Part shown: positions 55,983-64,000 of the stretch, piece after piece
Layout: every line of letters begins with the position of its first letter
Numbering within the stretch: position 1 is the first letter of the stretch
IMG/VR virus record: IMGVR_UViG_3300000114_000743
DNA length: 64,000 nucleotides
Strand: one strand, 5' to 3'
DNA from: a virus
Notes under the pieces: generated by a model
Databases searched by the model: none
Told to the model about the DNA's origin: nothing
Seen by the model: the letters and a program-made list of their open reading frames with translations, nothing else
Made by a program: the position numbers and the translations under genes

Positions 55983-56852
55983 TTGAAAATAGTAAGCCTA
56001 TTTGACGGAATTTCTTGCGGAATGGTCGCGCTTGAACGAGCCGGAATAAACGTGGAAGAATATCATGCTTTTGAAATCGAACAAAACGCAATAACCGTCA
56101 GCAAAAAGAATTACCCGCAAATTAAACACCACGGAAATGTTTATGAAAATGACTTTAAGAAGTTTGTCGGGTTCGACCTTCTTATCGGCGGAAGCCCGTG
56201 TCAAAGCCTCAGCATAACACAAAGCAAGAAAAGAAAGCATTTAGACGGTAAAAGCAAGCTGTTTTTTGAATATGTAAGAGCGAAGAAAACAGTAAACCCG
56301 CGCTATTTCCTGTTTGAGAACGTCGCCAGCATGAACGTGGAAAGCAAGCGAATAATCTCTGAGCTTCTGGGTTGCGAACCGATTTTAATTGATAGCAACT
56401 GCTTTTCGGCACAAGACAGACCACGGCTATATTGGACGAATATCCCAAATATCAAAACAAATCTGAAAGCAAATCCAACAGTCTTAAAAGACATATTAGA
56501 AAAAGAAGTCGAAGAAAAATATTTCTATAACCAAAAAATATCCGGCATTGATATGAAGAAAAAAGTTTGTGCGACGTTAGACATTAACGGTCACGATATT
56601 TTAAAGCGTGTAAATAACCCGAATTTCAAATGCCAGACATTGACAACTTGCGGCGGCGGAAACACGCAAAAGAAGGTAATCGACGGCGTAAGAGCAAGAA
56701 AATTGACCCCCGTCGAATACGAGCGTCTTCAAACCCTGCCAGACGGTTACACCGAAGGAATCGCAACTACAAACAGATACACGGCAATCGGCAACGGTTG
56801 GACAGCAGACGTGATAGCATACATATTTTCATTTTTGCCAAACGCTATATAA
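55983..56852 (+). CDS. C5-cytosine DNA methyltransferase
   Basis: SLFDG, GGSPCQ, ENV, QDRPR, R.LTPVEYERLQ, IGNGW. Confidence 0.95.
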   Translation: MKIVSLFDGISCGMVALERAGINVEEYHAFEIEQNAITVSKKNYPQIKHHGNVYENDFKKFVGFDLLIGGSPCQSLSITQSKKRKHLDGKSKLFFEYVRAKKTVNPRYFLFENVASMNVESKRIISELLGCEPILIDSNCFSAQDRPRLYWTNIPNIKTNLKANPTVLKDILEKEVEEKYFYNQKISGIDMKKKVCATLDINGHDILKRVNNPNFKCQTLTTCGGGNTQKKVIDGVRARKLTPVEYERLQTLPDGYTEGIATTNRYTAIGNGWTADVIAYIFSFLPNAI

Positions 56853-56875
56853 AATTACACAGAGAAGGTGATTTA

Positions 56876-57529
56876 CTGAAAGTATTGGAATTATTCGCCG
56901 GAACAAGGAGCATATCAAAAGAATTCGATGCCGACGGACATGAAACATATACAATAGAAATTGACAAACGGCACGGCAACATAACCCTTTACGAAGATAT
57001 ATTAAATATTACATCAGAGCAAATATTAAAAACATTCGGAAAACCCGACATTATTTGGGCAAGCCCTCCTTGCACCAGTTACAGTATCGCCGCAATTTCT
57101 CATCACAGAGCGAAAGAAGCAAACGGCAACCTCGCTCCTAAAAGTGAATTTGCTAAATTATCAGACCAACTCTTGTTACAAACATTCAAATTAATTAAAG
57201 AATTAAATCCAAAATATTGGTTTATCGAAAACCCCGTGGGCGGTTTACGAAAAATGGATTTTATGACAAATGTTCCGAGATACATGGTTACATACTGTCA
57301 ATACGGCGACACAAGGATGAAGCCTACCGATGTATGGACTAATCATCCCGAACCTTGTTTTAAACCCCCATGTAAAAACGGAGATAATTGCCATGTAGCC
57401 GCACCGAGAGGAGCAAAGACAGGAACGCAGGGAATCAAAAGTGCGATACAGAGAGCGGTTATTCCACCCGAATTGTGTAGACACATAGTTAAAATATGCT
57501 GCAAGGATAAAGGGGTGGTCGGTATTTGA
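56876..57529 (+). CDS. Short C5-cytosine methyltransferase-like protein (putative CTG start)
   Basis: KVLELFAG, WASPPCT, IENP; AAGGTG RBS. Confidence 0.85.
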   Translation: MKVLELFAGTRSISKEFDADGHETYTIEIDKRHGNITLYEDILNITSEQILKTFGKPDIIWASPPCTSYSIAAISHHRAKEANGNLAPKSEFAKLSDQLLLQTFKLIKELNPKYWFIENPVGGLRKMDFMTNVPRYMVTYCQYGDTRMKPTDVWTNHPEPCFKPPCKNGDNCHVAAPRGAKTGTQGIKSAIQRAVIPPELCRHIVKICCKDKGVVGI

Positions 57530-59947: not shown

Positions 59948-60586
59948 GTGACAAATGTAAATAGCACATTATTAATAGATGAATATGTAGTTTATATACA
60001 CACAAACATAACAAACAATAAAAAATATATTGGAATAACATCATACGAAAACCCTAAAAGAAGATGGAAGGGTGGAAGCGGATATAAAAATCAACCATAT
60101 TTTTACAATGCTATAAAGAAATATGGTTGGGATAATTTTATTAATGAAATAATTGACAAAGGACTTTCTAAAAATGAAGCAGAATCAATGGAAATAGAAT
60201 TAATATCAAAATATAACACTACAAATAAAGAATTTGGCTACAATTTGTCAAACGGCGGAGCTAAATATGGCAAGCATAGCGATGAAACTAAAATGAAAAT
60301 AAGCATGATTCGTAAAGGCATTATATTTAGTGACGAACATAGAAAAAATCTAAGTAAAGCACATAAAAATATTATTCAAACACCAGAACAAAACTATAAG
60401 AATATGATGAGTAATCCAAGAAGAAAACCAGTAATTTGCGTGGAAACACAAATGGTTTATGCAAGTATAAGGGATGCTGGCAGAAACACTAATATTAGTT
60501 TTAAGCTAATAGCCGCAATATGTAATAAAAAATATGGTCGTAAAACTGCTGGCGGTTATCATTGGAAATATTATATGAAGGGGTAG
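59948..60586 (+). CDS. Free-standing GIY-YIG homing endonuclease with NUMOD repeats
   Basis: VVYIH....KKYIGIT, HSDETKMKIS, PVICVET...YASIRDA. Confidence 0.88.
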   Translation: MTNVNSTLLIDEYVVYIHTNITNNKKYIGITSYENPKRRWKGGSGYKNQPYFYNAIKKYGWDNFINEIIDKGLSKNEAESMEIELISKYNTTNKEFGYNLSNGGAKYGKHSDETKMKISMIRKGIIFSDEHRKNLSKAHKNIIQTPEQNYKNMMSNPRRKPVICVETQMVYASIRDAGRNTNISFKLIAAICNKKYGRKTAGGYHWKYYMKG

Positions 60587-60589
60587 TGA

Positions 60590-61615
60590 ATGACACTATA
60601 TAGCAATGAGATAGTATTTAGAGGACACCCCGATCGTGTCTGCGACCAAATATCCGCCTCTCTGCTTCGCGCCTATATGGACGGCGATTCAAACACCCGC
60701 GCCGGAATCGAAGTCTGCGGAGGCAAGAAAAGAATCTTTATAACCGGCGAAGTCACAAGCAAAGCAATAGTTGATGTTGGACAAATTACGAAAAGAGTGT
60801 TGCGCGACATCGGATATTCGACCGAATACGAAATCATTAACAATTTGGGATTGCAAAGCCCAGACATCTCGAAAGGTGTAGATATAGGCGGTGCCGGAGA
60901 TAACGGCATGATGTTTGGATATGCCTGTAATGACACAGCGGAATTATTGCCGACAGCAATGGTGATATTACAGCGATTTGCCGAGGATTACGAGCATTTG
61001 CGAAAATACAACAGCAACTTTCTTCCCGATGGAAAAGCGCAGATAACCGGATATTACGATGACGATTTTAAACTTATTAAGATAAAAGATTTTACAATAT
61101 GTTATCAAAACTTAGAAATCTGCCGTGACATGACTGACAAAATCTTGAAGGATAACGCAAAATTCATTTGTGATGATTACGGTATTGAAATTGAAAACTT
61201 TAATATAAATCCAACCGGTAAATTTTTAATAGGCGGGTTCGAGGGGGATTCCGGGCTTACGGGCAGGAAGATTGTTGTAGACGCTTATCAGTCATTTGCG
61301 AATGTCGGCGGCGGATGTATGAACGGAAAAGATCCATCGAAAGTTGATTTCAGCGGCGCGTATAAAGCAAGACAAATAGCTTGCACATATCTGAAACAAA
61401 GAGATTTGAAGTGGTGTGAAGTTCAATTAAGCTATTCAATCGGATTGAAACGACCTATGGCTGTTTACATTAACAGCGATATTGGGAGTATAAAGCCACT
61501 CCCAACATTATTCATTGATTGTGAACCGTCAAACATAATTTGTGATCTTGATTTGAAACGCCTGAATTTTGAGGAACAAGCTAAATTTGGACATTTTAGA
61601 AAAGCATTTCAATAA
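60590..61615 (+). CDS. metK: S-adenosylmethionine synthetase
   Basis: GHPDRVCDQIS, GAGDNGMMFGYA, PDGKAQIT, GLTGRKIVVDAY, GKDPSKVD. Confidence 0.95.
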   Translation: MTLYSNEIVFRGHPDRVCDQISASLLRAYMDGDSNTRAGIEVCGGKKRIFITGEVTSKAIVDVGQITKRVLRDIGYSTEYEIINNLGLQSPDISKGVDIGGAGDNGMMFGYACNDTAELLPTAMVILQRFAEDYEHLRKYNSNFLPDGKAQITGYYDDDFKLIKIKDFTICYQNLEICRDMTDKILKDNAKFICDDYGIEIENFNINPTGKFLIGGFEGDSGLTGRKIVVDAYQSFANVGGGCMNGKDPSKVDFSGAYKARQIACTYLKQRDLKWCEVQLSYSIGLKRPMAVYINSDIGSIKPLPTLFIDCEPSNIICDLDLKRLNFEEQAKFGHFRKAFQ

Positions 61616-61658: not shown

Positions 61659-64000
61659 TTGAAATTAGGAAGTTTGTTTTCAGGTAGCGGAACGTGTGAA
61701 CTTGCGGCAACCTTATGCGGAATAGAACCTGTATGGGCTTCGGAAATCGAAAAGTTCCCTATTGAAGTAACTACAAAGCGTTTCCCGAACATGAAGCATT
61801 TAGGTGATATAACAAAAATAAGCGGCGCAGAAATTGAACCTGTAGATATTATAAGTGGAGGCTCACCTTGCCAAGATGTCAGCGTGGCTGGTAAAAGAGG
61901 GGGGTTAAATGCCGAGCGTTCCGGGTTGTTTTTTGAGTATATAAGAATAGTCAAGGAAATGCTGGAAGCAACTAATGGCGAATACCCAAAAATCATTTTA
62001 TTTGAAAATGTCCCCGGATTGTTAAGCAGCAATAAAGGTGCAGATTATATGACGGTTCTCAGTGAATTTCAAAATTTAGGATTCATACCTGACCCCGGTA
62101 TATTCGATGCACAATTTATGGGTGTTCCGCAAAGAAGGAAGAGAGTGTTTATAGTTTGCGTAAATGGGAGCACTTTTCAAGTGAGGAAGACGAATACATC
62201 ACTAACAATATCAATGGAAATTCTTGTGCAAATATTGCAAGGGCTTTGGGTAGACATGAAGGAAGTATTATCAAAAGAGCCGGAAAACTTAGAGCAAGGA
62301 ATAAAAATAGAACCATCAGACACTTTACTGACGAAGAGGATGCTTTCATTAGAGAAAACGTTGGGAAAAGACGTATGGCTTATATTGCAAAAGAGCTTGA
62401 AAGAACAAACGGAACAGTTAGGGATAGAGCAATTCGTCAACTCGGATTTACTAAAGATGAACTTAGATATAACGGTGGCGCAGAAGTTTGGTCATCAAAA
62501 AACGGATATTCAAGAACAACAAGAATCGTTGATGGACAACGAAAAGAAGTGTTTTTGCATAGAGAAATTGCTTCGCAAAAATATGGACGAGATTTACGAA
62601 ATGGCGAAATCGTCCATCACGCAGATTTGGACAAGGGAAACAATGAAGAAAAAAATCTGTTTGTATGCAGAAACAATGCTCAACATCGCAGAGTACATAA
62701 GTCACTCACCCCAATTATTACAAAATTGTTCAAACGGAATATTATTAAGTTTAATTTTGATGAAGGAGTTTACGAATTATGCGAATAAACGATTGCTTAA
62801 AGCAAATGGAATCATGGGAAGGGATTTGGATTTCAAATCTTTATCCGAAAGAATTTCAACCAATAGAATCGAGATTGAGCGGAATATTAGAAATGAATGT
62901 GCCGGAGAAATTTTATTTAAGCCAGAAAGCGTGTACGGGAATTTTACGCAGAGCGACGAATCGGAGGAAGGAATTACCGAGAATACTGAAAGAAGCTCTT
63001 ATGCGGCAAGCGGGTATGACGGATTCAACTTCGCTCTCACGGGCGACACAAGTTTTATCGTTGGAGTAAATTGTGGTTTGTCAACCGGCAAAAACGGTAT
63101 CATTGAAAAAAACATGAAAAAGACAGCCGGTGGCAATGATACATCTGCAACATTGTGTTCTGCTTACGGAACAAAATGGAACGGCAATGCAGGCGCATAC
63201 AACGGCGATAATTTTGTTTTGGATGAAGCAAATGAAGACGTGATTTGTGTTGCGACACAACAAACCAACGCCGAAATTATGGTCGATAAATGCCCCACAA
63301 TTACCAAAGCCGCAGGAACGAGCGGAAACAACAAGCCTTTCGTCTGTTTACCCGAAAATCTCAGTTATGGCGTAGTTTCTAAAGGAAACGGCGAAGCCTT
63401 TTTAACGAAAGAACGACATATGAGTTTATCGGTAGGTGGTGGTCAGGCAGGACAAGGCTATCCGTGCGTATTAACCGAAGAAGTAGATGGAATCGGAATA
63501 AGCGGTCAAATCGCCGTTACTCTCGATGCAAATTCTTATAAAGGTTGCGATGTACGAGGAGGGATTGAACGCGAAGTTGTATTAACAGCGGGATTTATCG
63601 GGGGACAAGGAGCTAAAGCCGGAAGTATTGGATATGCGGAAGAGCAATCCCCAACGCTTCGTTCAGAGCAAGATGTTCATGTTGTTACATATGATACTTT
63701 GGCAATTCACCAAAACGCAGATGGAGAAGTTAGAGAAAGCGAAGTAGCATATGCAATCAATACAAACAGTAATGCAAGCGGAAGAAATGTGCCGCTGGTG
63801 TATTCCTTTGATTCATTGTCATCAAATTCAATGAAATCACAAAATTCAAATTCCGGGTGCAGGGAAGTTGATGTCGCAAAAACGATTGATACAAGTTCAC
63901 AAGACCCGTCTAAAAATCAAGGTGGTATCGCGGTTGTGTATGGAATAGCGACAAAACAATTTTCTCAAAATATTATTGAGAATGTATCACCGCCAATTAT
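61659..64000 (+). CDS. Long C5-cytosine DNA methyltransferase (alpha frame), runs off window
   Basis: Manual translation: LGSLFSGSG, GGSPCQD, ENVPG, GVPQRRKRVF, CAGEILFKPES, then TL-type variable modules; no stop codon in 780 codons. Confidence 0.92.
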   Translation, partial: MKLGSLFSGSGTCELAATLCGIEPVWASEIEKFPIEVTTKRFPNMKHLGDITKISGAEIEPVDIISGGSPCQDVSVAGKRGGLNAERSGLFFEYIRIVKEMLEATNGEYPKIILFENVPGLLSSNKGADYMTVLSEFQNLGFIPDPGIFDAQFMGVPQRRKRVFIVCVNGSTFQVRKTNTSLTISMEILVQILQGLWVDMKEVLSKEPENLEQGIKIEPSDTLLTKRMLSLEKTLGKDVWLILQKSLKEQTEQLGIEQFVNSDLLKMNLDITVAQKFGHQKTDIQEQQESLMDNEKKCFCIEKLLRKNMDEIYEMAKSSITQIWTRETMKKKICLYAETMLNIAEYISHSPQLLQNCSNGILLSLILMKEFTNYANKRLLKANGIMGRDLDFKSLSERISTNRIEIERNIRNECAGEILFKPESVYGNFTQSDESEEGITENTERSSYAASGYDGFNFALTGDTSFIVGVNCGLSTGKNGIIEKNMKKTAGGNDTSATLCSAYGTKWNGNAGAYNGDNFVLDEANEDVICVATQQTNAEIMVDKCPTITKAAGTSGNNKPFVCLPENLSYGVVSKGNGEAFLTKERHMSLSVGGGQAGQGYPCVLTEEVDGIGISGQIAVTLDANSYKGCDVRGGIEREVVLTAGFIGGQGAKAGSIGYAEEQSPTLRSEQDVHVVTYDTLAIHQNADGEVRESEVAYAINTNSNASGRNVPLVYSFDSLSSNSMKSQNSNSGCREVDVAKTIDTSSQDPSKNQGGIAVVYGIATKQFSQNIIENVSPPI
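62156..62788 (+). CDS. Nested HNH endonuclease with two Myb/SANT-like repeats (frame +2 of the MTase)
   Basis: FSSEEDEYI / FTDEEDAFI repeats; LHRE.A...GR.L...EIVHH.D.DK.NN...NL....QH..VH. Confidence 0.85.
   Translation: MRKWEHFSSEEDEYITNNINGNSCANIARALGRHEGSIIKRAGKLRARNKNRTIRHFTDEEDAFIRENVGKRRMAYIAKELERTNGTVRDRAIRQLGFTKDELRYNGGAEVWSSKNGYSRTTRIVDGQRKEVFLHREIASQKYGRDLRNGEIVHHADLDKGNNEEKNLFVCRNNAQHRRVHKSLTPIITKLFKRNIIKFNFDEGVYELCE
62779..63069 (+). CDS. Nested EcoHK31I-beta-like MTase polypeptide (frame +1 of the MTase)
   Basis: ESRLSGILEMNVPEKFYLSQKACTGILRRA...KELP.ILKEAL; AAGGAG RBS 9 nt upstream. Confidence 0.75.
   Translation: MRINDCLKQMESWEGIWISNLYPKEFQPIESRLSGILEMNVPEKFYLSQKACTGILRRATNRRKELPRILKEALMRQAGMTDSTSLSRATQVLSLE

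Follow-up and report, generated by a model that had tools for sequence, protein, structure and literature searches.

Homing endonucleases are known to split phage genes, as in the td and nrdB introns of T4, the mobE-split nrdA of phage Aeh1, and the gene 60/mobA cassette of T4. In the ShiLan domain, reported from Mycobacterium phages only, an HNH gene lies out of frame inside a stop-free insert of a methylase gene (Gosselin et al. 2023, PMC9957025; Arsenault, Gosselin & Gogarten 2025, PMC11855218). A different layout is that of the methylase M.EcoHK31I, whose β subunit is encoded inside the α gene in another frame and carries motif IX (Lee, Kam & Shaw 1995, as described in PMC2836561). Here, we describe a locus at which two unusual layouts meet: an HNH insert that leaves the methylase frame free of stops, and a putative alternative-frame methylase subunit. 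It lies at the 3' end of a 64,000-nucleotide stretch (the window, to which all positions refer unless another locus is named) of the IMG/VR virus record IMGVR_UViG_3300000114_000743, a metagenome-derived provirus of 82.7 kb with 38% GC that is estimated to be 62% complete. The locus consists of a C5 DNA methyltransferase gene (α), an HNH endonuclease open reading frame (ORF) nested within it, and a small ORF in a third frame (β). The locus is real and under selection, and the explanation that we favor, at a probability of about 70%, is that a phage multi-module C5 methylase was invaded by an HNH cassette after motif VIII and is read through without removal of the cassette.

The α frame, which an initial annotation based on the letters alone had followed from TTG 61659 to the window end, is indeed free of stops over this distance (61659..63998, 3'-open); in the whole record, it ends at the window-equivalent position 64967, which gives 1102 codons. 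It matches the Pfam family PF00145 (DNA_methylase) at 3.9e-46, with 158 bits against a cut-off of 22, and, within the same reading frame of 1102 amino acids (aa), its C-terminal part matches profile positions 258-322. Motifs I, IV, VI, VIII, IX, and X are all present in α, which places it among the C5 cytosine methyltransferases. The last 80 residues hold motif IX (RRLTPHECQRLQGFPD, at residue 1025) and motif X (GNG), and between these and the N-domain lies a long array of target-recognition-type modules of the 'xPTLxA' kind, which extends outside the window. Directly after 'QRRKRVFIVC', α has an insert of ~247 codons (about 245 in the initial annotation) that is present in no insert-free relative. 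It is flanked by 'VFIVC' and 'CAGEILFK', and the frame resumes as 'CAGEILFKPES'.

The ORF nested in the insert encodes two Myb/helix-turn-helix (HTH)-like repeats followed by an HNH_3 domain. The Pfam match to this domain (PF13392, 1.7e-06, 28.0 bits against a cut-off of 24.8) substantiates the earlier reading of positions 62156-62788 as an HNH endonuclease, and the residues H154, H155, N163, N167, H177, and H181 are invariant in 13/13 homologues.

A tblastn search of 50,697 phage records with the HNH protein gave full-length matches only in nine records of cluster J mycobacteriophages (34% identity, E = 5e-26), all of them within the methylase gene. These genes have been annotated either as one long 'DNA methylase' coding sequence (CDS) or with the remark 'unable to determine intron boundaries' plus an HNH CDS. 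A search of viral contigs with the single HNH protein as query found no relatives, but an alignment query did find some, and the alignment-based search added viral contigs as well as contigs of metagenome-assembled genomes (MAGs) from Pirellula, Verrucomicrobia, Oscillospiraceae, and Lachnospiraceae. The locus set comprises 16 loci whose relative of this HNH is complete or almost complete. Their GC content ranges from 38 to 68%, and they span several phyla, including gut Firmicutes phages, cluster J mycobacteriophages, and Planctomycete and Verrucomicrobia MAGs.

The geometry of these loci is fixed. In 16/16, the HNH lies in frame −1 right after motif VIII (QRRRR-VFIVC), the host frame is open, and the β ORF starts with ATG at the 3' end of the HNH; the three coding frames that the initial annotation had proposed for a single locus are thus conserved in the same layout throughout the set. 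The open host ORFs reach 1081 aa, and two short contigs end inside the ORF. The HNH start lies 23-26 nucleotides past the first base of the QRRRR codons in 14/14 loci and overlaps the host Val-Cys codons, the start codon being ATG in 12 of them and GTG and TTG in one each.

In a tree of N-domains, one clade (support 99/97) mixes HNH-bearing genes (those of this window, L020, and L033) with insert-free genes, and the HNH of this window groups with the HNHs of Planctomycete-type methylases rather than with those of its nearest methylase relatives (88/93). Thus, the element appears to be sporadic and at least partly horizontally moved, a distribution that suggests that the nuclease may home.

The openness of the host frame could be evaluated statistically. 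With the HNH protein kept constant and its synonymous codons sampled according to the codon usage of this genome, we computed the exact probability of a stop-free α frame. Across the HNH ORF, 9.4 stops are expected in this frame and none is observed (P = 7.4e-06), in agreement with an earlier rough estimate of below 1e-5, while the third frame contains 25. The host frame carries no stop across the HNH in 14/14 loci (per-locus P from 1.6e-06 to 2.7e-02), against 6-25 stops per locus in the third frame, and it is equally free of stops across β in 12/12 loci, where the third frame has 2-9. Chance is therefore excluded as the reason for the open methylase frame across the HNH, and the proposal that the host frame is selected to stay stop-free stands.

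What is conserved beyond this openness is little. The host-frame insert peptide shows 25.4% identity between loci against a null of 18.7%, and the stop-ridden third frame 21.8% against 16.9%; across β, the advantage of the host frame over the third frame is similarly small. Because the identity excess of the third frame is nearly as large, the evidence argues for a frame that must be open and not for a functional insert domain, and we do not claim a selected domain here. The demonstrable constraint on the read-through is the absence of stops. AlphaFold2 (AF2), run with 11 homologues, predicted α residues 170-414 as long helices at moderate confidence, with block means of the predicted local distance difference test score (pLDDT) mostly at ~54-84 and two low stretches, and residues 415-519 as disordered (pLDDT ~25). 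The coordinates of all features are collected in Table 1.

Table 1. Features of the methylase locus (window positions; HTH, helix-turn-helix; P(open), probability of a stop-free frame).
Feature	Position	Strand	Basis or remark
α, C5 DNA methyltransferase ORF	61659..64000, on to 64967 past the window	+	Pfam PF00145
α N-domain, first 166 residues, with motifs I (FSGSG), IV (SPCQ), VI (ENVPG), and VIII (QRRKRVFIVC)	61659..62156	+	translation and alignment
Motif VIII codons (purine-rich CAAAGAAGGAAGAGAG), then putative HNH start TTG 62156	62130..62158	+	HNH start overlaps host Val-Cys codons
HNH homing-type endonuclease ORF, 210 aa, TTG start, frame −1 relative to α	62156..62788	+	Pfam HNH_3 and homologues
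Host-frame read-through, α residues 167-413, stop-free, predicted all-helical	62157..62897	+	P(open), AF2
Shine-Dalgarno-like GAAGGAG of β, from HNH codons for '(D/E)EGV'	62762..62768	+	10 nucleotides before ATG 62779
β ORF, 96 aa, ATG start, frame +1 relative to α, 'LSGILE..VPEKFYLSQKACTGILRRA..R.KELP..L..AL'	62779..63069	+	tblastn, HMMER, alignment
α/β dual-coding overlap; α reads 'CAGEILFKPESVYGNF...' as a predicted linker, β reads its conserved core	62898..63069	+	stop counts, AF2
Start of the α recognition-module array ('SATL', 'CPTITKA', 'SPTLRS', etc.)	63070..64000	+	translation, homology to insert-free relatives

The β ORF had been recognized in the initial annotation as a polypeptide with its own ribosome-binding site, and such a signal is present upstream of its ATG. 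In most of the 16 loci, a GGAG/GGGA-like sequence ~10 nucleotides before the β ATG derives from the conserved '(D/E)GVY.LC' codons of the HNH. The β ATG overlaps the last HNH codons, and all three frames are open over positions 62779-62788. No Pfam family matched the 96-aa product. By tblastn, matches to β were found in numerous phages; they lie within the methylase gene, in frame +1 relative to the N-domain and directly behind it. An exhaustive HMMER search recovered 2196 cluster representatives at E <= 1e-3 (its top match, P0002, is a tandem-repeat artefact and was ignored). Mean identity of β is 44% across 12 HNH-bearing loci, which points to strong purifying selection.

The matches to β fall into three groups. 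Many are free ORFs of 70-190 aa; in others, such as P0017 and P0033, β continues in frame into recognition modules and motifs IX and X; and in the insert-free complete methylases P0045 and P0008, motif VIII, β, and the modules follow one another in a single frame. The PF00145 envelope of P0045 extends into the β segment. Thus, β is the family's own, ordinary segment following motif VIII and not an invention of the insert. Across the family, it is encoded in cis, fused to the C-terminal half, or carried as a separate +1-frame cistron. The earlier view of β as a private feature of the insert has to be given up, as the +1 frame is also found in many HNH-free relatives. Three insert-free genes, those of Streptococcus phage Javan191, Terrisporobacter phage TPDSL_ph1, and Ruminococcus phage NatCom_3870, carry β in frame +1; this ORF ends in '..LS.IL..VP.KYYLS.KAC.GILRRA..RGK.LP..L..AL..Q' and a stop codon, and the β frame is conserved exactly where the α frame is not.

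Four insert-free relatives, in which β is in frame +1 and overlaps motif VIII, were located at L005:2563-2800, L006:2503-2740, L007:2485-2720, and L011:2264-2500. The codons 'ATC TAC CTT GTC GCA GAT TTT' are nearly invariant across the Streptococcus, Terrisporobacter, and Ruminococcus phages. In L011, it is β that runs into the remaining C-terminal half of the enzyme, the N-domain frame being closed by a stop.

The AF2 model of β is a small helical unit with a pLDDT of 82, reaching 88-98 at residues 31-80. Foldseek comparison of this model with the PDB gave nothing at E <= 0.001, and PDB sequence searches with β alone and with a β profile returned chance-level matches only. The prediction of a complex between β and the α N- and C-domains scored 0.01, a value that carries no weight for or against an association. 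We also considered a true duplication of motif VIII around the insert. This was rejected, as the downstream 'copy' aligns without gaps only in the β frame, other HNH-bearing loci hold no trace of motif VIII at this place, and the 'copy' corresponds to the β residues 3' of motif VIII in single-frame relatives.

On these grounds, we propose that an HNH homing-type cassette from a widespread family entered the α gene immediately past motif VIII. The cassette would stay in both RNA and protein, with the stop codons of the methylase frame being purged instead. Ribosomes would read α through the nuclease gene as ~247 codons of predicted helical structure and then through the small β gene as ~57 further codons of disordered linker, up to the modules and motifs IX and X, and the resulting α would have to be active with the insert in place. 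The nuclease would be translated separately from a start codon that overlaps the final Val-Cys codons of motif VIII, and β from an ATG preceded by a Shine-Dalgarno sequence built from the last codons of the nuclease, so that all three frames would be translated. By analogy with naturally split C5 methylases, β probably rejoins α as a small subunit.

Several observations weigh against this proposal. The HNH start in this window is a weak TTG; the placement of the HNH in its tree has moderate support only (88/93); and the identity excess of the host-frame peptide, 6.7 points, is barely above the 4.9 points of the third frame, which cannot be translated. In L014, moreover, one ORF combines β with the recognition modules and motifs IX and X, and the α frame stops, so this two-polypeptide form needs no read-through to join its halves, yet the frame is open there too.

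L014 bears directly on the alternative that the enzyme is simply split, with an N-domain and a downstream piece that restarts, and without any functional read-through. The frame would then be open for some other reason, such as translation coupling of the HNH, β, and downstream genes, or the avoidance of Rho-dependent polarity. In that locus, a single +1-frame ORF that begins at an ATG of its own encodes β, the modules, and motifs IX and X; the α frame has no stop across the HNH and ends ~90 codons after it. Two-chain C5 methylases can work, as M.EcoHK31I shows (PMC2836561). However, here and in most other HNH-bearing loci, the modules and motifs IX and X are in the α frame, contiguous with the read-through and lacking a start signal of their own. 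In addition, the frame relation in L014 changes at a run of nine G residues (G9), where an indel or assembly error is likely. We therefore regard a merely split enzyme as improbable.

A frame switch during expression has somewhat lower odds still. Programmed frameshifting or slippage could join the N-domain (frame 0) to β (+1), or β to the modules (−1), so that the working enzyme would arise by frameshifting instead of from α and a free β. This would suit the insert-free relatives, in which β has no obvious start and overlaps motif VIII, as well as L011, where β continues into the recognition modules after the N-domain frame has stopped; G9 runs are present at the β/module junction in L009, L014, and L019. 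However, β has its own ATG in 16/16 HNH-bearing loci, usually after a Shine-Dalgarno-like sequence, and no slippery run is found at either junction in this window. The motif VIII strand 'RIYLV' and 'ES.LS' of β are encoded by the same nucleotides. Thus, one frameshifted chain cannot hold both, which favors separate polypeptides, and recoding is unnecessary at this locus because β has its own start.

The G9 runs are located where the β frame and the module frame cross (L009:3264, L014:3370, and L019:3322). The run joins β to the rest of the enzyme in L014 but not in L019 or in the cluster J phages, and the runs may represent phase variation, slippage, or homopolymer error. In L009:3100-3800 (Mycobacterium phage KashFlow and 8 related records), comparison with L021 requires frame changes (0, +1, 0, +1) 3' of β. 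The cluster J methylase may be decaying or slippage-dependent, and its annotation differs between near-identical genomes. In the HNH-bearing locus L015 (2199-2470), the host ORF opens shortly before motif VI, with motifs I-IV outside the frame; this methylase may be truncated, while its HNH and β are intact.

A self-splicing intron or another spliced element carrying the HNH ORF is slightly more improbable than recoding. HNH genes of phages are commonly intron-borne, and the homologous locus of phage Schatzie carries the annotators' remark 'unable to determine intron boundaries'; furthermore, excision of exactly 62157-62778 would put the N-domain in frame with β, as in P0045 and P0008. Even then, however, translation would end at the β stop codon, before the modules and motifs IX and X. 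An Rfam search for self-splicing introns at E <= 10 found none, and nothing qualifies the element as a group I intron. The ~110 nucleotides of the insert outside the HNH ORF encode β and leave no room for a ribozyme core, and an intron does not need the stop-free host frame that is present in 14/14 loci. Thus, an intron is unlikely because it lacks an Rfam match and non-coding room and leaves the stop depletion unexplained. The out-of-frame position of the HNH and the lack of a Pfam match to an intein or Hint domain in the host-frame peptide exclude an intein; the absence of both types of element agrees with the initial annotation.

The last alternative, a decaying gene or assembly artefact with an accidentally open frame, could draw on the incomplete metagenomic origin of the record and on the several downstream frame changes needed in the cluster J homologue, but it is effectively refuted by the comparative data, given P = 7e-06 here, the same architecture in 16 independent loci, and intact methylase and HNH motifs.

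The three genes may also be entangled in a way that keeps the cassette in place. The start signals of the HNH are motif VIII codons, the Shine-Dalgarno sequence and ATG of β are built from the conserved C-terminal '(D/E)GVY.LC' codons of the HNH, and the recognition modules are reached only by reading through both HNH and β. Because of these dependencies, the cassette might be addiction-like and not cleanly lost, and the +1-frame β of insert-free relatives could be the scar of a past HNH invasion and deletion. We consider this extension speculative and rather unlikely.

Another type of hidden HNH, whose N terminus is Cys-rich and zinc-finger-like, was observed at L031:1815-2813 and L032:1710-2846. 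This nuclease occupies frame −1 of other C5 methylase genes, nested between the regions for motifs IX and X, and again the host frame has no stop across it; the host ORFs, of 333 and 379 aa, remain open in the fetched stretch.

Directly 5' of the methylase gene in the window lies a phage S-adenosylmethionine (SAM) synthetase gene (60590-61615), preceded directly by a free-standing homing-type endonuclease gene of the GIY-YIG/NUMOD3 type (59948-60586; both by Pfam). Two different selfish nucleases, GIY-YIG/NUMOD3 and HNH, are thus present inside 2.2 kb. More C5-methylase matches are found just 5' at window positions 55983-57529 (genome positions 73378-74223 and 74274-74657). A scan for promoters and terminators gave nothing above shuffled sequences, no near-identical DNA was found in the phage collection, and no sequencing run containing the locus was listed.

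Together, these data indicate that hidden read-through homing endonucleases are not a mycobacteriophage oddity but an old, phylum-spanning family with a fixed geometry, and in the AT-rich genome studied here, statistics suffice to demonstrate that stop codons are purged. The locus offers a compact test system for the tolerance of a protein to translation through a foreign gene and for the sharing of start signals by overlapping genes. Annotation pipelines overlook the HNH, β, or both, or flag such genes as broken.

Compared with T4 td/nrdB, Aeh1 nrdA, and the gene 60/mobA cassette, the locus shares a selfish endonuclease gene at a conserved site of a host gene whose function is preserved. It differs in that there is no splicing, bypass, or gene split, and the host protein apparently tolerates translation through the endonuclease gene.

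Like M.EcoHK31I, which the initial annotation had described correctly (PMC2836561), the locus has a small β chain inside the α gene, in another frame and on the same strand. The suggestion of an EcoHK31I-type β does not hold, however. Motif IX is here in α and β lacks it, being instead the segment that follows motif VIII; an HNH is involved here but not there; and both the association of β with α and the activity of the two chains are putative here.

The closest match is the ShiLan domain. In both, the insert leaves the host frame without a stop and encodes an HNH in another frame, signatures of introns and inteins are missing, the distribution is disjunct and suggestive of homing, and the host-frame peptide is predicted to be helical (a helical hairpin or bundle in ShiLan). 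This manner of gene occupation by a homing endonuclease is not new, as it was published with ShiLan (PMC11855218). The two nevertheless differ in HNH lineage, insertion site, and start-codon geometry. The HNH described here carries Myb/HTH repeats in place of zinc fingers, and ShiLan was not among its tblastn matches, its presence in the searched phage records being unchecked. Its start overlaps motif VIII of the host, whereas that of ShiLan is a GTG 18 bp inside the insert. The hosts extend far beyond Mycobacterium and include AT-rich genomes in which the statistics are strong, and the third conserved ORF, β, at the 3' end of the HNH is unmentioned in the ShiLan paper (PMC11855218). Thus, the locus is a well-supported new lineage of the hidden-nuclease principle rather than a new principle.

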